Part shown: positions 7,946-47,138 of the stretch, one piece after another
Layout of the letters: the number at the start of each line of letters is the position of its first letter
Numbering within the stretch: the stretch's first letter is position 1
NCBI GenBank assembly: GCA_964014485.1
Contig: CAXHAT010000001.1
Span: 66,946-130,945, forward strand
Direction: 5' to 3'
Origin: an uncultured Deferribacteres bacterium
GTDB lineage: Bacteria; Zhuqueibacterota; Zhuqueibacteria; Zhuqueibacterales; Geothermadaptataceae
DNA length: 64,000 bases
The notes under the pieces: generated by a model
What the model was told of the DNA's origin: nothing
The model's input: the letters and a program-made list of their open reading frames with translations, nothing else
Database searches by the model: none
Translations under genes and position numbers: made by a program

Positions 7946-8946
7946 ATTTTAACGCTTTCGCAGCCGCAGAAGCTTCGGCTCAATTTGCGCCGTTCGCCTA
8001 TCCGCCAAAACCGCTTTCACACCTTGATCTTGAAATTGAAATCACGCATTGCGGCATTTGCCACAGCGACGTGCATTTGTGGCAAAACGATTGGGGAATC
8101 ACGCATTTTCCTTTTGTTCCCGGCCATGAAATTGTTGGGATCGTTCAAAAGCGCGGCAAGAACGCGAAGCAATTTGAAATTGGCGATCGCGTCGGCGTGG
8201 GCTGGCAATGCGGCTCCTGCCACAAGTGTGAGTTTTGCGACCGCGGCGAGGAAAACTTGTGCGACCGCAAAAAAGCGACGTGCGTCAAAAATCACGGCGG
8301 ATTCGCGGACAAGATTCGCGTCGACCATCGATTCGCGTTCAAAATCCCGGGAGCGCTGAGTTCGGCGGGTGCGGCGCCGCTGCTTTGCGGCGGAATCACA
8401 GTTTATACGCCGCTCAGAGATTTTGGGGTGAGCTCAGAAATGAAAGTCGGCGTTGTCGGCGTCGGCGGCCTCGGACATTTGGCCATTCAATTCGCCGGCG
8501 CAATGGGCTGTGAAGTGACGGCCTTCTCGACTTCTCCAAATAAGGAAAGTGAAGCAAAAAAATTTGGCGCACATCATTTTGTCGATTCTCGTAACCGTGA
8601 AAAAATGAAAAAAACACAGCGTTCTCTTGATTTTATATTAACCACGGTTTTTGCTGATTTGGATTGGCGCGTTTACGTCAACGCGCTGCGGCCGCGAGGC
8701 AAGCTTTGTTTTGTCGGCGTGCCGGAGCAACCGATCACGATTTCTCCAAGCCAATTGATTGAGGGGCAGCGCTCCATTTGCGGCAGCCCAATCGGCGGGC
8801 GGGTGATGATGCAGGAAATGTTGCAGTTTGCCGCACGACATAAAATCGAGGCGCAAATTGAGACGCTTCCTTTTTCAGAAGTGAATGCGGCGATGGCCAA
8901 AGTGCGAGACAGCCAAGCGCGTTACAGGGTTGTTTTAAAGAATTGA
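7942..8946 (+). CDS. Zn-dependent NAD(P)H alcohol/aldehyde dehydrogenase (CAD/Ahr-like)
   Basis: CGICHSD, GHEIVG, structural Zn CxxCxxC-x7-C, GVGGLG; ATGA overlap with the upstream gene. Confidence 0.92.
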   Translation: MNFNAFAAAEASAQFAPFAYPPKPLSHLDLEIEITHCGICHSDVHLWQNDWGITHFPFVPGHEIVGIVQKRGKNAKQFEIGDRVGVGWQCGSCHKCEFCDRGEENLCDRKKATCVKNHGGFADKIRVDHRFAFKIPGALSSAGAAPLLCGGITVYTPLRDFGVSSEMKVGVVGVGGLGHLAIQFAGAMGCEVTAFSTSPNKESEAKKFGAHHFVDSRNREKMKKTQRSLDFILTTVFADLDWRVYVNALRPRGKLCFVGVPEQPITISPSQLIEGQRSICGSPIGGRVMMQEMLQFAARHKIEAQIETLPFSEVNAAMAKVRDSQARYRVVLKN

Positions 8947-8956
8947 GGCCTTTTGT

Positions 8957-9024
8957 AAGGAGAGCAAGGCTTGCCTTGATTGTACGCTAAGCTTTTAAAA
9001 GGCAAAGCAAGCTTTGCACTCCTT
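8957..9024. repeat. REP-like inverted doublet (GCACTCC family) between convergent genes
   Basis: aaggagagcaaggcttgccttg ... caaagcaagctttgcactcctt. Confidence 0.6.
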
Positions 9025-9036
9025 CTGGCGATCCCG

Positions 9037-11529
9037 CTATTTTTCCGGCTGAAGATGCGTCACGTGCTGCGCAACGGATTCGACTTTTGGCCGTGAATAG
9101 AATGCCGGAAAATACCGTCCCTCCGCCCAGAGTTTAAACAAATCTCCGTAGTGCGGGCTATTTGGATCGCCTGACTGACCGGGCGAATTTGTGCCCACCG
9201 AATTATCCCAATTTCCCGTGTCAGCAATAATTCTGAATGTGCCGCCGGAGCGTTGATTGTCCGAGTTTGACGTGTTGTTCACGGTGTAGCCGTATCCGCC
9301 GCGCGGCAAAGGCCCAACGTTGAGTTTTTCCTTCATAGCTTCCGTCACCGCGCCGCTCAGCATGTGTTGAATTTTGCTGTGATGATATTTCGCCTGGCCG
9401 TATTGCCATCGTCGCATGTCTGCGCCCAATTTATTGGTCAATTTTTCAAGCGCCTGTGACAAGCTGTTGAGTAAAAGTTCATCCCGCGCGGCGACCGGAT
9501 TTTTGCCGAATGCTCCGTCGGGAGCAACCAACCATTCGATGAGACGAACGCGCGACACACCGCCGAAAAGAGCCGCATCTTCGAGAGAAATTCGTAAAGC
9601 GATGACATTTTGCGCCAGTTTTTTCTCCCACGCTGCGTAAATTCCTGCTTCTACAGAATTTGCATCGAGAACGAAATCCCAATCCAAAAGCATTCGCATC
9701 GCTTCCGCGACGCGCCGGTCGTCAGATTTTAGATTCTTGAGCAACGGGACAATTGCCCGCGCAACGAGAGAGAGCTCGTCGTGCTGCAAAAGCATGTTGT
9801 CGGAAAGCGTAAGTTTTCGTCCTGAGCCCAGCACTTCTTCGATGCGGTGAAAGCGGAACGGGTCTGACCAATTAAATCCAATGTGGTAGGGGTAATCGAG
9901 CGGGACGTTGTTTTGGTTGGCGGTTGCAAAATGGCCTTTTTCAGGGTTGTAAACATTCGGCAGAGATTTTACCGGTAAAAAGCCTGTCCATTCAAAACGG
10001 CCGTCGCCCGGGACGGGAAGAACGCCTTGCCAATCGTTGCGCACGGGCGTGAATCCGACCGCCTGCCAGCCGATGTTACCGTTTTTGTCGGCCCAAACCA
10101 TATTTTCCGGCGGCGTTCCGGAAAAACTGCACGCCTCGCGAAATTCTTCAAAAGTGGCTGCTTGATCCATGCGCAAGCTGGCCAAATAGGGCGCGGTTCC
10201 GATTTCCAACCATGCCGCGCGCAACGCGTAAGCCTTGCTATTTTCTGCGTCTTCGTACAATACCGGGCCGTGTCTTGTGTATTTTAGTTGAACAGTCTTT
10301 GGCTCTTGACCTTTGACGGGGATACTTTCTTCGATCATTTCCATATCCTGCCAACGTCCCTGATATTTGTACTGGTTTGGGTTTTCAGGATTTGTGTCGT
10401 AGGTGTACAAATCTTCCTGATCGATAAGAAAAATTGTCAATCCCCATGCGCCGTGCTCATTGTGGCCGATTGAAAGTCCGGGGAGTGCAGGCTCGCCGCC
10501 GCCGATGGCGTTCCAGCCCGGAGCATTGAGGTGGGCCCAGTAACGCAGCGAGGGAACCTGCAGACTGCGATGGGGATCATTGGCCATAATCGGATAACCG
10601 GAAAACGTCTTTTCGCCGCTCAACACCCAGTTATTGCTGCCGATGGTGTTAACAACCTCGTTGACGTCACCAAACAGTTTCAAAAAGTAATCTCGGGCAT
10701 TTTCCGGCTCTCCTTGCGCCAATCGTCCTTGAATCTCCTGGTTAAAAAGCGCCCCGGTTTTGGGAGATTTGCCACGATGCTCGGCTTGGGCAATATCTTC
10801 GGGCGTAAAGGGCGGCGGAAACCGAGATGCGTTGTATATCTCCAGAACGTCCTGCGTGATGAGTGACAAGTCAAGTCCTGGTTTCACCTCAAGGTCTGGC
10901 TGCCCGTGGTGGTAATTGTTGATTTCGCGAACCTTGTCGGCCCCGAGCTTGTGTACGAGTTGCGCGGTCGCGACTTCCGCTCGTGCGCCAAAAAACAGGC
11001 CGTTGTGCCGCGAAACCACGATTTCCGGCGTCCATTCGCCGGGCTGAATTCCGAGCAATCCAAATTCAATTGGCAGCAGATCGGGGTTTTGTCGCGTCAG
11101 CTCAATGTAGGCGTTTATCCCCGCAACAAAAGAAGTGATAATCTCACGCCCGTCTTCGTGATAGTGCGCCATTTCTTGTTCAATCGGCTTGCGCAGCTTG
11201 AGCAGCCTCGCTCCAATGTCGTGCTGCAGCGCTTTTTCACCCTGAATTTCCGCCAGCAATCCGAGCGCGCGTCTGCGCCACATCTCGAATTGGAAAAGCC
11301 GATCACGCGCTGCATTCCAGCCTTGCGCGAAAAACAAATCGGGCTGGTTTTGTGCGTAAATGTGTGAAATCCCCCACCTGTCCTTGATGATTTCAACCGT
11401 CTCGCTCAAGCCGGCGATTTTCAGAGTGTCGACTTTGTCACCATAGGTGGCCGTCCGCCCTTCCGGCGTAAAGTTCAGGATGACTCCCAAAGCCAATGCT
11501 TTGACCAAAAGCCTTGATCGATTTCGCAT
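9037..11529 (-). CDS. Penicillin acylase family (S45, Ntn-hydrolase)
   Basis: DRWGISHIYA, GSNNW nucleophile, ANDPH, PGQSG...HYGD. Confidence 0.92.
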   Translation of the reverse strand: MRNRSRLLVKALALGVILNFTPEGRTATYGDKVDTLKIAGLSETVEIIKDRWGISHIYAQNQPDLFFAQGWNAARDRLFQFEMWRRRALGLLAEIQGEKALQHDIGARLLKLRKPIEQEMAHYHEDGREIITSFVAGINAYIELTRQNPDLLPIEFGLLGIQPGEWTPEIVVSRHNGLFFGARAEVATAQLVHKLGADKVREINNYHHGQPDLEVKPGLDLSLITQDVLEIYNASRFPPPFTPEDIAQAEHRGKSPKTGALFNQEIQGRLAQGEPENARDYFLKLFGDVNEVVNTIGSNNWVLSGEKTFSGYPIMANDPHRSLQVPSLRYWAHLNAPGWNAIGGGEPALPGLSIGHNEHGAWGLTIFLIDQEDLYTYDTNPENPNQYKYQGRWQDMEMIEESIPVKGQEPKTVQLKYTRHGPVLYEDAENSKAYALRAAWLEIGTAPYLASLRMDQAATFEEFREACSFSGTPPENMVWADKNGNIGWQAVGFTPVRNDWQGVLPVPGDGRFEWTGFLPVKSLPNVYNPEKGHFATANQNNVPLDYPYHIGFNWSDPFRFHRIEEVLGSGRKLTLSDNMLLQHDELSLVARAIVPLLKNLKSDDRRVAEAMRMLLDWDFVLDANSVEAGIYAAWEKKLAQNVIALRISLEDAALFGGVSRVRLIEWLVAPDGAFGKNPVAARDELLLNSLSQALEKLTNKLGADMRRWQYGQAKYHHSKIQHMLSGAVTEAMKEKLNVGPLPRGGYGYTVNNTSNSDNQRSGGTFRIIADTGNWDNSVGTNSPGQSGDPNSPHYGDLFKLWAEGRYFPAFYSRPKVESVAQHVTHLQPEK

Positions 11530-40509: not shown

Positions 40510-41961
40510 ATGAAGCCCTTTTTTCAAAAATTCAAAAACGCCGCGCCTTTGAAAATCGCTTTCAACGAGATTATCCCGGACGACTCCACAGACGCACGAA
40601 TTCGCGAGCGTGCAGTCTATTTTTATTACGCACGCAAAGTTGTGCGACGAAGCCTCGACGGCAAATTGCGCGTTTTCCGCCAAAAAGCGATGCAAGGCGC
40701 ATTGAATTCTCAGGACTATGCCGTTATGAACGAAATCTTCGAACGGCTCAAAAAGCGTAAAACCGCCCAGTTAGAAAACCGTGACAAGAAGCCTGAATCA
40801 GCAGCGTTTTATCATTATGCGCGAATCAACAGCTATGCGATGCTTTTGTCGCAAATTTTGTTCGTACAAAACTGCGTTGTTGAAGAAATTCCGGTTTGTA
40901 TCGACGAAACGTCAGCGGCGGGAACCATTGATAAGCTGACGATTTACCTGCTTGACTGCGCTCAAAAAAACCATGCGCCGATTCAGAAAATCGACGCGCG
41001 TTTTTATGCGACGCTGTTTTTGTTTCAAACCGCGTTCGACCGGCTTTTTGTGCCTGATGAAAATATTGTTGCTTATAATTTTGAATCCGGGGCTTACCAG
41101 GTGACGGCGCAATATGAAAAACATACTGCTTGGCTGGAGCTCTCGAATAAAAAAGTACTCGCCGCCTGCGACGCGGAAAAAGCGCTTTGCCGCAACCTCA
41201 CCACCGGCTGGAGCGACGGCATTGATTTGGCAACTTGGGACAAGCTCAATGCATATTACTACGCCGCCATTTCTCCAACCACTGGCGAAGCGGCGCTGTT
41301 TACCAAGAACTACGACGTCCTTCTTGAAAGAATGCTGCCGCAATTCACTCTGTCTAAAATCAAGTTGGCGGAGGATGTTTTGGACTGCCTTCAGCCGAGA
41401 GAGAAACTCAACGTTTTGGAAATCGGCGCCGGGTCGGGCGCTTTTGCAATTGATTTGTTGATGGCGTGTAAAAGGCGAGACATTCCCTTCGAAAGTGTTG
41501 AATACTTCGGCGTTGAGCCAAGCGAATACATGCGGCAAAATTTTCGGGCGAGCGTAGGAAGGAAAATCGGCAGTCAAGATTTTCCGAAAAACTGGCGACT
41601 GGTGGAAGGGCGGTTAGAAAACGTCAATTCCGAGCCTAAAAAGTACCTTCGGGCGGAAGAAAACAACGTCATCGTTTTGAGTTTTAGCATTCATCATTGC
41701 TTCTACGACAGCGCCGTTTCATTTTTGGAAAATCGCGAGATCAAGCGTCTCGCTCAAGCTGTTTTTGTGTTGGAAGGCGTGAGAGAGCACGGCTGGACCA
41801 AGCCGTACTACATGTGGGCCGATTGCGAAAGCCCGGAAAACTTTAATAACGTCATCCTGCGCGGCGCTTGGGACGAAGAAACGCTCTGGATCGAGCCGAA
41901 TCGCCCGCTGCCGGGAACGTGCGTCACGACAGGGTGGAGTTGTTTGCGGAAATTGACATAA
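40510..41961 (+). CDS. Class I SAM-dependent methyltransferase with uncharacterised N-terminal half
   Basis: VLEIGAGSG, GVEPS, FSIHH in the C-terminal half. Confidence 0.7.
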   Translation: MKPFFQKFKNAAPLKIAFNEIIPDDSTDARIRERAVYFYYARKVVRRSLDGKLRVFRQKAMQGALNSQDYAVMNEIFERLKKRKTAQLENRDKKPESAAFYHYARINSYAMLLSQILFVQNCVVEEIPVCIDETSAAGTIDKLTIYLLDCAQKNHAPIQKIDARFYATLFLFQTAFDRLFVPDENIVAYNFESGAYQVTAQYEKHTAWLELSNKKVLAACDAEKALCRNLTTGWSDGIDLATWDKLNAYYYAAISPTTGEAALFTKNYDVLLERMLPQFTLSKIKLAEDVLDCLQPREKLNVLEIGAGSGAFAIDLLMACKRRDIPFESVEYFGVEPSEYMRQNFRASVGRKIGSQDFPKNWRLVEGRLENVNSEPKKYLRAEENNVIVLSFSIHHCFYDSAVSFLENREIKRLAQAVFVLEGVREHGWTKPYYMWADCESPENFNNVILRGAWDEETLWIEPNRPLPGTCVTTGWSCLRKLT

Positions 41962-42228: not shown

Positions 42229-45015
42229 ATGCCAGACGCAAACGCTCTCATTACCAAAGCGCTCCCCGAGCTGGCGAAGTGGGGATATGAAAAGTACAGA
42301 CAAAGCCGCGCCAGCTTTGAAGACCTGGCTCGCAAAACCCTCGCCGACATTCTCAAAAAACGCAATAAAAACGAACGCATTGTCGACAAGACGATTGAAA
42401 ATCTGCTTGCCGATCCGGCCCTGCAAAATTGGCTCGACGGCGCGCAATTGCCGAGTGATCTAACTTTTGAGAAGCTCGCTGGTCGCGTCAAGATCGATCC
42501 TTTTATTTTGCGCGAATTTTTGCTCGCATTTGAAAAGAAAATCGCCGCTGATCCACAACTGCGAGAAGAAAAAAAACAGAGGCTCGCTGCGGAAAACGCG
42601 CAATTCAACCGCCAAACAAGCGAGATTCTGGAAAAACGGTATGAAGGCCCGGAACAGGAACGCCAAAGCGCCCTTGCGGATTACCGCCAAAAGGTGCGAA
42701 AAGAATTTTCCAACATTACGCTGTTCGGCGACCGTGCGGGCGGTGATGGAGAAGAAAGCGTCATCGAGCGCATGTCCGACATGACGCGCGGATTTGTGCC
42801 GCTGCATTTGAAAGCCTGGCGGGATGAGCAACCGGGCGCCGACGATTCCGCTCTTGAGCTCGAAGACGTATTTTTTAAAAACAGGAAGCGTCTGATTCTG
42901 GTGCGCGGTCTGCCCGGCGGCGGCAAAACCACGCTCTTGCGCTACCTCGCATGGCGTTTTGCCGCCGATAAAAGCGGCGCGCTGCCTATCTATGTTCGCT
43001 TGGAAGCTCTCGAATTGGAAGAAGAATCGCTGACCGAATTCATTCGGATCGAGATCGGCAAGCGATGGACGACGCAGGCTATGGAAGAAGCCCTTCTCCA
43101 CAAAAGCTGCTTTTTGGAAACGCCGATGATCCTTTTGCTCGACGGCGTTGATGAAATCAAGGATTCCGTCAGCCATCAAGGTTTTGCCAAAGCCTTGCGT
43201 AATTTGACGCGTAAAAACAGACGTTGCAACATCATCGTCGCCTCGCGCCCGATTTCACTGAAAAAGCAGGATTATCCTGAATTTGAGACTTACGATCTCG
43301 ATAGACTGACGCAGCCGATGATAGATGATTACGTCCAAAAATGGTTCGGCGTCGAGCAAACGAAAATCGGTCTTTTGCAAAACACTTTGAAAGAAAAGCC
43401 GCGTATCCGCGAACTGGCCGAAATTCCGTTTTTGTTGAGCATGATTTGCTTCACTTTTGACGACGAGGGTGCCGCGCTGATTAACCGCCGCAGTGCGCTC
43501 TACGAAGCCTGCACCAACCGCCTGCTGGCGCGCATGTACAAGGTTGACGACGCGCCGAAACTCACCGCGCCGCAGGAAGAAACCCGCGCCATGCTCAAGG
43601 ATTTGGCCCTGCGCTTTTTCCTCTGGCAGGAATCGGAATTTCCCGCCGACCAGGTTAATGTGCTCGGGAAGCGTTCGCTCTCTGCCGAGGCGCTCAAAGC
43701 TCCCGCTGAAACGCTGGACGATTTGCAGCTCAAAACCGGCTTGATTCAACATGCGCAGGACGGCTTTTCCTTCGTACATCGTTCGCTGTGGGAATATTTT
43801 ACCGCGCTGGCCTTGCACGATAAAAACGACGTGAAATTTGTGACCAAACACGCCGCCAACCCGGACTGGGAAGAAGTGGTGCGTCTGTTTGCCGGACTGC
43901 TCGAAACGCAGGAGGCAGTGCAAGCGCTGGTCGACGGCTTATGGAACATCAACAAGCCCCTCGCTCTGCGCGTTTCCACCGAAGTGGAGACTGAAGCGGC
44001 GGCGCTGCTGAAGCCGTTGATTGAAAAAGACGGCGGCGGCAACCAGGATTTGCTTTTGTTGATCGACTTCATCGACCAGTCGCTGCCGCTGGTTACGAAA
44101 GAAGCCGGGCAAAAACTGGCGGACGAAACCTTGCGTATTCTGTTTTCCGAGTGCGGCGTGACCGACTGCCAGGCGCTCTACCACGCCCACATGCTGCTGG
44201 AAAAACTGAACATGGAACCAACCGAACCCGGCGGGTTGATCTATGACTTGCTCGACCTCGAAAACGCCGCGCAACGCCAACAAGACCTGCTCGCCGATCC
44301 CGAAAACCTGTTCGAATGGATCGACGTTGAAGGCGGCGAGTTTCGAATGGGCGACAAGGACGGTTATTATACGAATGAGGAGCCGGAGCGCCGCGTGCGC
44401 GTGAATGGCTTTCGCATGATGAAGCATCCGGTTACCAATCGCTTGCTGCGCAGCGTCGATTTTCCCTTTTTATCGCAAACGGCGGCGGATTATGCGAGAG
44501 CTCAGAGCGAAAAGCGGCCATTGGTCGCCGTGACCTGGTTCGAGGCGTTCTACTTTTCGCTTTTTATCGGCGCGCGCCTGCCGACCGAGGCCGAATGGGA
44601 ATTCGCCGCGCGCGGCGGCAAAGGCGCGCCGCACCAGACGTACTATTTTGGCGATGATGAGAATGCATTGCCGCAGCACGCCTGGTTTTATGAAAACTCC
44701 GGGCAGCGTGCTCATAAGGTCGATGAAGCGATCGCCGAAACGAAGCCGGGCGATGATCATCCGCTCGGACTGGCGAATATGCTGGGTAACGTGTGGGAAT
44801 GGTGCGGCGATTGGTACGGCGATTATGAAGCTTCGGAAGAGGTTGTCGATAACCCGACCGGTCCTGAATTTGGCAGTCGGCGTGTTTTGCGGGGCGGCGC
44901 TTATGACGCTCTCGCCTCCTACGTGCGTTGCGCTGTTCGCCTCAGCCTCATACCCGCGCTCATCGATTATGGCGTGAGTGTGCGCTGTGTTCAGGACGGT
45001 TCTCTTTCCCTTTGA
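42229..45015 (+). CDS. NACHT NTPase + FGE-sulfatase (SUMF1/CLec) domain protein; DGR target
   Basis: GLPGGGKT, LLLDGVDE, ASRP, FVHRSLWEY; RLPTEAEWEFAARG, NMLGNVWEW, RVLRGG; VR at the 3' end. Confidence 0.92.
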   Translation: MPDANALITKALPELAKWGYEKYRQSRASFEDLARKTLADILKKRNKNERIVDKTIENLLADPALQNWLDGAQLPSDLTFEKLAGRVKIDPFILREFLLAFEKKIAADPQLREEKKQRLAAENAQFNRQTSEILEKRYEGPEQERQSALADYRQKVRKEFSNITLFGDRAGGDGEESVIERMSDMTRGFVPLHLKAWRDEQPGADDSALELEDVFFKNRKRLILVRGLPGGGKTTLLRYLAWRFAADKSGALPIYVRLEALELEEESLTEFIRIEIGKRWTTQAMEEALLHKSCFLETPMILLLDGVDEIKDSVSHQGFAKALRNLTRKNRRCNIIVASRPISLKKQDYPEFETYDLDRLTQPMIDDYVQKWFGVEQTKIGLLQNTLKEKPRIRELAEIPFLLSMICFTFDDEGAALINRRSALYEACTNRLLARMYKVDDAPKLTAPQEETRAMLKDLALRFFLWQESEFPADQVNVLGKRSLSAEALKAPAETLDDLQLKTGLIQHAQDGFSFVHRSLWEYFTALALHDKNDVKFVTKHAANPDWEEVVRLFAGLLETQEAVQALVDGLWNINKPLALRVSTEVETEAAALLKPLIEKDGGGNQDLLLLIDFIDQSLPLVTKEAGQKLADETLRILFSECGVTDCQALYHAHMLLEKLNMEPTEPGGLIYDLLDLENAAQRQQDLLADPENLFEWIDVEGGEFRMGDKDGYYTNEEPERRVRVNGFRMMKHPVTNRLLRSVDFPFLSQTAADYARAQSEKRPLVAVTWFEAFYFSLFIGARLPTEAEWEFAARGGKGAPHQTYYFGDDENALPQHAWFYENSGQRAHKVDEAIAETKPGDDHPLGLANMLGNVWEWCGDWYGDYEASEEVVDNPTGPEFGSRRVLRGGAYDALASYVRCAVRLSLIPALIDYGVSVRCVQDGSLSL
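44878..44998 (+). repeat. DGR variable repeat (VR)
   Basis: Aligns to 45206-45323, with differences almost only at TR adenines. Confidence 0.93.
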
Positions 45016-45041
45016 GCGCTCTTTACTCTTTTTACACTAAT

Positions 45042-45056
45042 ACCCGCCCTGCGGGT
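45042..45056. other. Post-VR hairpin/cruciform (DGR target-recognition element)
   Basis: acccgc-cct-gcgggt, preceded by a pyrimidine-rich tract and followed by cgaaaattttt. Confidence 0.65.
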
Positions 45057-45095
45057 CGAAAATTTTTTTTGAAATATGGCCCATTCCAACTTCAC

Positions 45096-45182
45096 TTCTC
45101 GTTCCAACGCTTTGCGTTGGAACGCAGCGCAGGCGCTTCGCGCCCGGAGATTACATTCCCACGCAAAGCATGGGAACGAGAA
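45096..45182. repeat. REP doublet (CTCGTTCC family) between VR and TR
   Basis: ttctcgttccaacgctttgcgttggaac ... ttcccacgcaaagcatgggaacgagaa. Confidence 0.85.
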
Positions 45183-45205
45183 ATTTAAAAGGCGTGATTC
45201 CGGAG

Positions 45206-45323
45206 CAGCGTGTTTTGCGGGGCGGCGCTTATAACAATAACGCAAACAACGTGCGTTGCGCTGTTCGCAACAACATACCCGCGAACATAAACAATGGCGT
45301 GAGTGTGCGCTGTGTTCAAGACG
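45206..45323 (+). repeat. DGR template repeat (TR)
   Basis: AAC/AAT-rich copy of the VR: tat aac aat aac gca aac aac gtg ... cgc aac aac ata ccc gcg aac ata aac aat ggc. Confidence 0.93.
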
Positions 45324-45483
45324 CCGGATAAAATGGATGCCGGAGTCCGGGCGATCACGGTCTCCCGGAGTGTGCATGCCGCCGTCCAGGAATCAAGCCT
45401 GTCTTGTTCCGTTTTTTCCGGAAGGAGACGAACACAAAAACCGCACAGGCGCGGCTAGTAGGCCCCTCGAACGTCGCGCCTGT
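45324..45483 (+). ncRNA. Structured spacer 3' of the TR (putative DGR RNA 3' domain)
   Basis: ccggg...cccgg stem and terminal acaggcgcg...cgcgcctgt stem (45445-45483), in the position of DGR TR-RT spacers. Confidence 0.55.
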
Positions 45484-45520
45484 TGTATTTACCCGCGCTC
45501 GCTCTCGTTCCAATGCTTCG

Positions 45521-45668
45521 TTCTCGTTCCAATGCTTCGCGTTGGAACGCAGCTTAGGCGCTTCGCGCCAATTTCACGCGCCGGGATGAATCGCCGGGCC
45601 TGGGAGCCGAGAGAGTGGGCGCGAAGCGCCGGGAGACTTCATTCCCACGCGAAGCGCGGGAACGAGAA
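45521..45668. repeat. 148-bp REPIN, left of the RAYT
   Basis: Direct repeat of 46269-46416 with CTCGTTCC/GGAACGAG ends; partial REPs at 45504-45520 and 45680-45693. Confidence 0.88.
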
Positions 45669-45717
45669 GGCGTCGATGGCATGGGAACGAGAATGTTATA
45701 AAGAAAGGAGCCTGTTC

Positions 45718-46257
45718 ATGGGGCGGTCGCGTTATAAAATCTTCGAGCAGGAACGTCCGCATTTTTTCACCAGCACGATTGTTCAATGGCTTCCGCTTTT
45801 CGCGAGTCCTCATGTTGTTGAAATCATTTACGAATCCTGGAAATTCATGCAAAAAGAAGAACGATTCGTCATTTACGGCTACGTGATTATGGAAAACCAT
45901 CTGCACTTCATCGCCTCATCGCCGACGAACTTGAGCAAGGAAGTCGGCGTCTTCCGCTCTTACACGGCGCGGCGGACCATCGATTTGCTGGAAGAGAAAA
46001 AAGCCAAACGCATTCTGCGCCAATTGAACTATTACAAGCTCAAACACAAGAAAAATCGCAAGTATCAATTCTGGCAAGAAGGCGCGCATCCTGAGGCGAT
46101 TCTGAACGACAAAATGATGATACAGAAAATCGAGTACATGCATTACAATCCTGTGAAGCGCGGCTATATCGATGAGCCGGTGCATTGGCGTTATTCCAGC
46201 GCTCGGAATTATGCCGGAGCGGAGGGGTTGATGGATATTACATTGTATGAATTATGA
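45718..46257 (+). mobile_element. REP-associated tyrosine transposase (RAYT, Y1 HUH)
   Basis: HFFTST, YVIMENHLH (HUH), FWQEG, YMHYNPV, WRYSSA; AAGGAG RBS; flanked by REPINs. Confidence 0.92.
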
Positions 46258-46268
46258 ATCATTCCTGT

Positions 46269-46416
46269 TTCTCGTTCCAATGCTTCGCGTTGGAATGCAG
46301 CTTGGGCGCTTCGCGCCAATTTTACGCACCGGGATGAATCACCGGGTCTGGGAGAAGAGAGAGTGGGCGCGAAGCGCCGGGAGACTGTATTCCCACGCAA
46401 AGCGTAGGAACGAGAA
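46269..46416. repeat. 148-bp REPIN, right of the RAYT
   Basis: Direct repeat of 45521-45668. Confidence 0.88.
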
Positions 46417-46895: not shown

Positions 46896-47138
46896 ACTGA
46901 TGTTACCGCGTCTCGTTTGGCGTGCGTGATCAAAGCACGTAGGCAACTATTGATTCTTATTAGCTCCGTTCTTCAGGATACTGTTGGCGTTTTTCCCCAG
47001 GGCTTCGCCCTTCGCTATTACATTCGACCCCTTTGGGGTCAGTCTTTGGAATTCGCCAACAGTATCCTTCAGCCTGGCGCTAATGAGACAAAATTTGCCC
47101 CGAGATTTAGGCTATGCGTTGCCGCGTGTAACATCAGT
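46896..47138. mobile_element. MITE-like element, copy 2 (11-bp TIR ACTGATGTTAC) containing a nested TIR element
   Basis: actgatgttac...gtaacatcagt flanked by T runs; inner gatactgttggcg...cgccaacagtatc flanked by direct cttcag. Confidence 0.72.

Follow-up and report, generated by a model that had tools for sequence, protein, structure and literature searches.

A NACHT protein with a lectin-fold tip written by a diversity-generating retroelement that has lost its avd and reverse transcriptase genes

The DNA considered here (the window) is a stretch of 64,000 nucleotides (66946-130945) from a 131-kb contig (C1) of an uncultured Deferribacteres bacterium, whose genome assembly amounts to 8.4 Mb in 465 contigs and is 97% complete. 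The gene of interest encodes a NACHT protein that ends in a variable repeat (VR). It is followed by a hairpin, the first codons of an avd gene, a palindromic element, a template repeat (TR) that matches the VR, a structured RNA element and a transposase gene. This is the anatomy of a diversity-generating retroelement (DGR) from which the reverse transcriptase (RT) is missing. The features are collected in Table 1, together with those of other contigs and of related loci that are discussed below.

Table 1 Features of the locus and of related loci. Positions refer to the window unless a contig (C) of the same genome (G000) or a homologous locus (L) is given. CLec, C-type lectin; ORF, open reading frame; REP, repetitive extragenic palindromic; RAYT, REP-associated tyrosine transposase.
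Feature	Position	Strand	Remarks
Upstream methyltransferase-like protein	40510-41961	+	483 aa; C-terminal third matches Methyltransf_28/12/23
NACHT-FGE/CLec target gene	42229..45015	+	928 aa, intact; ORF list, translation, Pfam NACHT and FGE-sulfatase
N-terminal helical module, residues 1-150	42229..42678	+	Putative effector/adaptor slot, by position
NACHT NTPase core, residues 221-373	42889..43347	+	PF05729; Walker A GLPGGGKT, Walker B LLLDGVDE
FGE-sulfatase type CLec fold, residues 696-921	44314..44991	+	Predicted non-catalytic; Pfam E 1.9e-40
VR, residues 885-923	44880..44998	+	11 variable residues
GC hairpin, 5-bp stem, and T-run	45043..45070	+	Just past the stop codon; putative terminator and/or DGR target-site hairpin, from sequence
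avd remnant	45076..45090	+	First ~5 codons (~15 nt); collinear with avd start of L026 and L010
REP-like palindromic element, 87 nt	45096..45182	.	At expected avd and RT site (~1.4 kb in L026); repeat family D2/D3
Remnant of RT 3' end and RT-TR spacer	45184..45207	+	Alignment to L026
TR	45208..45323	+	Single copy in genome; one codon shorter than VR
Structured RNA element, ~185 nt	45316..45502	+	Pairs with last TR bases; terminator-like stem at end
RAYT with two flanking REP doublets	45521..46416	+	RAYT 45718-46257; 148-nt doublets 45521-45668 and 46269-46416
Complete DGRs elsewhere	C94:24243-28356; C135:5215-9185; C74:28523-32631		Each with RT, TR and two VRs
Second RT-less DGR cassette	G000:C343:687-2049	-	FGE-fold target; VR 1272-1444; avd homologue 891-1193; TR 687-859
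L021 Y1 transposase and REP-like features	L021:4633-5130; L021:8675-9042; L024:1456-1748		

An earlier note on this DNA, made from the letters alone, described the protein as NLR-like, with an N-terminal module, a NACHT NTPase and a C-terminal FGE-sulfatase fold whose last ~40 codons form the VR. The Pfam matches bear out this three-part layout and the extent of the ORF. The NACHT domain scores 48.9 bits (cut-off 26.7; E 8.7e-13), and both Walker motifs quoted in the earlier note are present in the translation, in columns that are invariant across a 14-member family alignment (GxxGxGKT and DGxDE). The best homologue aligns over the entire protein (100%) at 65% identity. No transmembrane helix is predicted (the top Kyte-Doolittle 19-mer score is 1.5), and the protein is predicted to be a soluble STAND/NACHT switch. 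The PADLOC models for bNACHT and Avs do not match the protein, which gives only weak matches at the level of the P-loop (mad8, E 2e-4; TRIP13; DndD). The NCBIfam model DS8_antiphage scores 29.8 bits over the NTPase, far under its cut-off of 790, and says little either way.

The C-terminal domain was modelled with AlphaFold2 at pLDDT 86.9 and pTM 0.89. Foldseek matches the model to FGE (TM 0.77) and to TvpA of Treponema denticola (2y3c; TMq 0.75, E 6.4e-15), and TvpA is also found at the level of sequence (phmmer E 4.7e-18). The active-site loop of FGE bears two cysteines, which we take to be the catalytic pair. When S. coelicolor FGE (2q17) is aligned with the present domain, the first of these falls at a gap and the second at a variable Ala/Ser position, so that the paired cysteines of a catalytic FGE are not found in this alignment. 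Because they are absent, the lectin domain is predicted to be a binder rather than an enzyme. The variable residues 893-898 align with the cysteine-bearing loop, and the VR would thus appear to be located where the FGE fold binds its substrate.

Of the 19 substitutions between VR and TR, 18 affect adenines of the TR and the other is a C-to-T change. Adenines make up 30 of the 116 TR bases, and 18 of the 30 are changed; were all 19 substitutions to have fallen at adenine, the probability by chance would be ~7e-12. Fourteen VR codons are unlike those of the TR, in line with the earlier estimate of about that number, drawn mostly from AAY codons (the TR has 10). Three of the changes are silent, and the 11 variable residues are 893-895, 897, 898, 905-907, 911, 913 and 914. 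These differences show that DGR mutagenic retrohoming wrote the binding tip, with the adjacent TR as its source. The locus has the adenine-confined differences, the VR at the C-terminal end of a CLec fold and the structured RNA beside the TR that are expected of a DGR, and lacks a DGR-type RT and the accessory gene avd.

There is in addition a 3-nt indel between the repeats, absent from the earlier note, where three VR codons stand against two in the TR. At the same site the TRs of five relatives (L026, L010, L021, L022 and L024) have three codons, as in the present VR. This argues against a gain of a codon by the VR, and indicates that the TR lost one after the last homing event. Since the missing codon is still present in the VR as well as in the relatives' TRs, no homing is likely to have occurred since the loss.

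No RT is present on the contig: a search of the genome with RVT_1 gave six matches, all of them on other contigs. Similarly, tblastn with the Avd of L026 finds no Avd on the contig, and the ORFs neighbouring the target include neither Avd nor RT. The comparison with L026 locates the loss to the base. From a point within the target gene to position 45086, where BLAST homology stops, the contig and L026 are collinear. Homology resumes at 45184 and takes in the RT stop codon, the spacer, the TR and also the RNA element (314 nt, 78.7% identical); 45184-45491 aligns with L026 9767-10075, and the RT match of L026 ends at 9769. In L026 the intervening 1374 nt (8393-9766) hold a 114-aa avd and the RT, and the counterpart here is 97 nt. 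A deletion of ~1.4 kb has therefore removed avd and the RT, and the DGR is now non-autonomous.

The junction was compared with three public sequencing runs from one study, which may include the source sample; their contigs are of low depth (depth ≤8), with rare variants dropped. In two of the runs, unitigs span the junction without differences (44999-45305 in run X1 and 45168-45346 in run X2), and the junction is thus not an assembly join. The unitigs break at 44970-44998 because the VR and TR have a 35-nt stretch in common. The hairpin and T-run upstream of the junction are also found in L026, L010, L021, L022 and L024, with changed stem bases. A scan of 44950-45750 for promoters and terminators gave nothing usable on the + strand.

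The palindromic element at the scar belongs to the same repeat family as the two REP doublets that flank the transposase gene downstream, which are 91% identical to each other. The transposase itself scores 98.7 bits with NCBIfam NF047646 (cut-off 80), which identifies it as a member of the RAYT family. The repeat family has 31 BLAST matches in the genome, of which seven, on four contigs, are near full length. The deletion has left ~5 codons at the start of avd, together with the RT-TR spacer, the TR and the structured RNA, and the REP-like element is located at the junction. A second RAYT, 48% identical to that of the window, is found on contig C27.

L026, L010, L021, L022 and L024 all conserve the ~185 nt that follow the TR. 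RNAalifold predicts 47 base pairs from the six loci, 20 of which have compensatory changes, and one helix joins the last bases of the TR to the downstream segment. The covariance model R1 built for this element scores 183 bits at the present copy and recovers the element in eight further loci at 77-160 bits. Rfam RT-7 gives a weak partial match at 45339-45419 (E 0.0024), under its gathering score. The motifs RT-1 to RT-19 are described as neighbours of RT genes, and one of the set occurs in the BPP-1 DGR (PMC5737381). No second element of the R1 type was found in the genome at E≤1 among the 150 of 541 first-look candidates that were scored.

Three of the six RTs in the genome contain IGxxxSQ, which we take to be the DGR-type RT motif, and all three (on C94, C135 and C74) belong to complete DGRs (Table 1). 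R1 matches none of these three loci at E≤10. The C94 RT is 35-37% identical to the RTs of the cognate class, which are 61-69% identical among themselves, and on both grounds the C94 DGR was rejected for now as the cognate partner. The RTs of C135 and C74 are long (open frames of 567-595 aa), with the TR just upstream, and a NACHT-like match adjoins the C74 DGR. The genome also contains a second RT-less cassette, on C343. Here 19 of 22 mismatches are at template adenines and the avd homologue, 36% identical to the Avd of L026, is still present, with a small ORF and a palindromic repeat in the place of the RT. The small ORF looks GIY-YIG-like to us, and the string at the start of the contig resembles a library adapter.

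The N-terminal module has been further analysed. The earlier note had called it helical and unassignable, and so it proves: the AlphaFold2 model of residues 1-150 is all-helical (pLDDT 64.6), and no Pfam family matches at E≤0.01, nor any convincingly at E≤1, where the NNH families give no match at all. A phmmer search of 1.84 billion representatives gave six matches, one being the same protein and two being multi-stretch matches in long proteins, and the module is probably specific to this family. Foldseek finds no match to the model in the PDB at E≤0.001. A plant mitoribosomal protein was discarded as a fold match, its VIA Z score of 7.5, the best obtained, being that tool's background for helical models. 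Against N-termini of the NNH2, NNH5 and DUF4062 types hhalign gave nothing convincing (probability <1% for NNH2 and NNH5). The one hint of an NNH-type module, Atlas feature scores of 0.84 against NNH2 and NNH3 clusters, is under the reliability bar of the tool, and in the Atlas structure comparison all rows have TM <0.5.

TIR and trypsin domains are typical effectors of cell death and defence, and in orthologues that share the NACHT-FGE body the N-terminal slot is filled by TIR_2, Trypsin_2, DUF4062, NNH2 or NNH5. Their presence in the same slot supports, by position only, the view that residues 1-150 may be an effector or adaptor. This part of the earlier proposal is thus favoured by the company the slot keeps, and no fold, family or partner has been found to go with it. 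Partner proteins sharing the domain, which the earlier note suggested looking for, did not appear: a tblastn search of the 8.4-Mb genome at E≤1e-3, with BLAST-level sensitivity, returned only the gene itself. For an adaptor of the effector-associated domain (EAD) type of Kaur et al. (2020), the N-terminal domain would be expected to recur on another protein of the genome, an effector, and that search does not show this pattern.

On the basis of these observations, we are confident that the locus encodes a DGR-written NACHT-CLec sensor whose avd and RT genes have been deleted. By analogy with NLR and Avs proteins, the C-terminal FGE-type lectin fold would bind a ligand through its 11 variable residues, binding would license an NTP-dependent oligomerisation of the NACHT core, and this in turn would cluster the N-terminal helical modules, acting as effectors or adaptors. 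A mechanism of sensing, oligomerisation and effect of this kind is what we infer from the comparison. As to the present state of the tip, it seems frozen, because the TR has lost a codon and neither a cognate RT nor a second cognate RNA element was found in a genome that is 97% complete; that it is no longer diversified we regard as only modestly probable. Taken together, a sensor of fixed specificity with a decayed diversifier is the best explanation, and we give it moderate confidence. The earlier note had proposed a diversifiable pattern receptor with a hypermutable tip. The layout, the adenine-specific writing and the TvpA-like fold all agree with such a receptor, whereas present hypermutability is not supported, in view of the deletion of avd and the RT, the lack of an RT on the contig and, among the candidates scored, of a second cognate RNA element, and a TR codon change that has not been homed.

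Some observations weigh against a frozen tip. The TR and the RNA element are intact, and only one mismatch between VR and TR is not at adenine, which means either that the loss is recent or that the cassette is still in use. The assembly, in its 465 contigs, could be missing a cognate RT, as could the RNA search, which scored 150 of 541 candidates. The remaining points come from the relatives. About 97 homologues were found, many of them named candidate division KSB1, and a TR/VR pair was counted where at least 75% of mismatches were at adenine. By this measure 10 of 21 loci on genome contigs have such a pair, three of the 10 with an RT. The metagenome loci total 37, from which L085-L087 (27-29% matches) were left out; 8 of the 34 examined have a pair, two of these with an RT. 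Including the present locus, 14 of 19 TR-bearing loci are thus RT-less (13/18 if L013, from the unpublished genome G002, is removed), so that most TR cassettes in this family have no RT, a frequency that leaves room for service in trans. The gaps between VR and TR in the RT-less loci are 92-429 nt, too short for an RT, and Pfam scans of the flanks found no RT within ~5 kb of L012, L017 and L021.

The most serious alternative is therefore that the locus is an active satellite, in which the TR and RNA are still transcribed and an Avd-RT encoded elsewhere works on them in trans, so that the tip is still diversifiable. The enzymes might come from a cognate pair missing from the assembly, or from the complete DGR on C94, C135 or C74. 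In addition to the frequency of RT-less loci, this reading is favoured by the retention of the RNA element in seven further RT-less metagenome loci (at 140-160 bits in L052, L055, L056, L061, L067 and L078; L071 scores 80 bits). Moreover, all five searched genomes that hold RT-less loci encode RTs of DGR size elsewhere, and one of them, G003, holds the RT-less L021 together with a full DGR, L031, whose RNA belongs to the same class (122 bits). Activity in trans at degenerate loci has also been proposed for Thiohalocapsa PB-PSB1 (PMC10907252).

Sister loci also bear on this reading. L021 and L024, both RT-less, have one deletion junction in common. Within the repeat their TRs show three differences at positions other than adenine; the VRs of the same loci mirror two of these but not the third. 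In the likewise RT-less pair L011 and L012 the single such difference is mirrored (1/1). The mirrored changes suggest that information has passed from TR to VR after the RT was lost. However, they amount to three sites only, and gene conversion of the RecA type could give the same pattern. Also counting against a satellite at the present locus are the failure to find a second R1-type element in the genome among the candidates scored, the distance of the resident C94 RT, and the TR codon loss that the VR has not copied, while run contigs of such low depth cannot show VR variants. On this evidence we consider continued service in trans unlikely here, and the decayed diversifier remains our preferred account.

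A still more tentative generalisation, to which we give a rather low probability, is that the usual state of the family is a non-autonomous cassette, made up of the target, a private TR and the RNA, that is serviced in trans by a master Avd-RT through the shared RNA. If this were true, DGRs would have a division of labour resembling that of long and short interspersed nuclear elements (LINE/SINE), repeated clean loss of avd and the RT alone (here by way of REP/RAYT) would be what makes satellites, and the present locus would be a satellite caught just after a mutation of its TR.

The relatives also provide examples of the stages before and after such a loss. The full order, found in L010, L026 and L051, is target, hairpin with T-run, avd, RT, TR and structured RNA; in L016 and L069 the RT and TR precede the target. 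At the other extreme, in L055 (2986-3164) and L067 (2711-2897) the RNA element directly follows the diversified 3' end of the target with no separate TR, and it looks as if the VR and TR have recombined with the deletion of everything between. The relatives form a decay series, from the full DGR through the RT-less form to a VR fused to the RNA element. In L021 an IS200-like Y1 transposase lies directly upstream of the target, and unrelated REP-like palindromes occupy the gap between VR and TR; this is a second case of REP/Y1-transposase elements at the site of a lost avd-RT. A different arrangement is seen in L017 (83-8370, KSB1), which has tandem AAA_35-FGE, nSTAND1-FGE and DUF4062-NACHT-FGE targets. 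One TR between the targets matches two VRs, and no RT is present in the 8.8-kb locus.

A different kind of alternative accepts the history of the locus and questions the role of the receptor, which might serve in recognition of kin or of self and non-self, or in regulation, on the same NACHT-CLec chassis, instead of acting against invaders. The PADLOC result, with its matches at the P-loop only, would fit such a role, as would the lack of a conserved effector gene beside the target: in Pfam scans of the flanks the neighbours differ among the present contig, L012 and L021. Kin recognition is raised as an alternative in PMC10907252 as well. Nevertheless, TIR_2 or Trypsin_2 in the N-terminal slot of orthologues speaks for defence, and we think a role outside it doubtful. 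Finally, it is improbable that the RT-less form is merely one variant in a population or an artefact of a metagenome-bin consensus, with other cells diversifying in cis from an intact locus, as long reads showed for intact-RT forms of Thiohalocapsa DGR 3 and DGR 7 (PMC10907252) and as a 465-contig assembly might conceal, given the clean passage of the X1 and X2 unitigs across the junction and the lack of loose ends at 45087-45183 among those listed, in contigs that at depth ≤8 drop rare variants.

Sensors of the NACHT-CLec type diversified by DGRs, and degenerate DGR loci, have already been published (PMC10907252, PMC7159879). The closest known system is that of Thiohalocapsa PB-PSB1 and the clade 5D DGRs, whose targets include NACHT-CLec and nSTAND1-CLec proteins (Dore et al. 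2024, PMC10907252). As described there, these targets also have a central NACHT and a C-terminal FGE-type CLec with the VR, and N-terminal extensions that either lack known domains or contain TIR or peptidase domains. PB-PSB1 likewise has 'degenerate' loci without an RT or accessory gene, several DGRs in one large genome, and loci shaped by transposons and by repeats resembling miniature inverted-repeat transposable elements (MITE-like) (PMC10907252). The present locus differs in its lineage, the best homologues being named candidate division KSB1 or Calditrichaceae, and in that the exact deletion can be mapped, with a REP element in place of avd and the RT beside a RAYT, and with a private TR and its RNA retained. 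In PB-PSB1, service in trans was inferred for VRs that match the TR of another locus (PMC10907252), unlike the private TR found here. FGS domains have also been linked to DGRs in NTPase conflict systems (PMC7159879). Relative to what is drawn here from these two sources, the additions are a deletion map at the level of the base, the association with REP/RAYT, the conserved 3' RNA, and the high share of RT-less loci with a private TR.

Comparison with better characterised systems is also instructive. TvpA, a stand-alone surface lipoprotein, has the same FGE-type CLec fold with the VR at its C-terminal end, whereas here the fold forms the sensor end of a predicted cytoplasmic NTPase. The bNACHT and Avs proteins have an N-terminal effector slot, a STAND NTPase and a C-terminal sensor, as here, a comparison drawn in PMC10907252. 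The present protein, whose role in defence is putative, differs from them in lacking a PADLOC match and in having as its sensor a DGR-written lectin fold in place of TPR or other repeats. The BPP-1 DGR (mtd-avd-TR-brt) likewise transfers sequence from TR to VR with adenine specificity, its target region being a CLec fold, and has a structured RNA by the TR (PMC6182149; bioRxiv 10.1101/2023.10.23.563531); it differs from the relatives' order of target, avd, RT, TR and RNA, and avd and the RT are lost in the present locus. In common with known REP/RAYT systems, the RAYT lies between two inverted-repeat doublets, with further copies scattered in the genome, but here one REP copy lies at the scar left by the deletion of a retroelement module.

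It is worth considering what follows from these results. Among bacterial proteins, those of the DGR-written NACHT-lectin kind come closest to an immune receptor that can be diversified, and we know of none that has so far been tested experimentally. The locus provides a base-level example of DGR decay or non-autonomy, in which the enzyme genes are cut out cleanly and the template and its RNA handle survive, and this recurs in relatives. If service in trans occurs, one RT could diversify many private templates, and counts of DGR targets would change, because most pipelines start from the RT; minimal TR-RNA cassettes might then be of use in engineering. If on the other hand the RT-less cassettes are fossils, they would supply a graded series for dating the loss of DGRs.

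The remaining genes near the target can be described briefly. The methyltransferase-like protein encoded upstream matches SAM-methyltransferase families in its C-terminal third only and has no family match in its first ~280 residues; its gene does not recur beside homologues of the NACHT-FGE gene. The ORFs downstream encode the RAYT, a TfoX_N protein and a GAF-HD protein, as identified by Pfam and NCBIfam. In the intergenic sequence after the TfoX_N gene there is an inverted repeat (46960-47095), with arms of ~20-25 nt spaced by ~75 nt.

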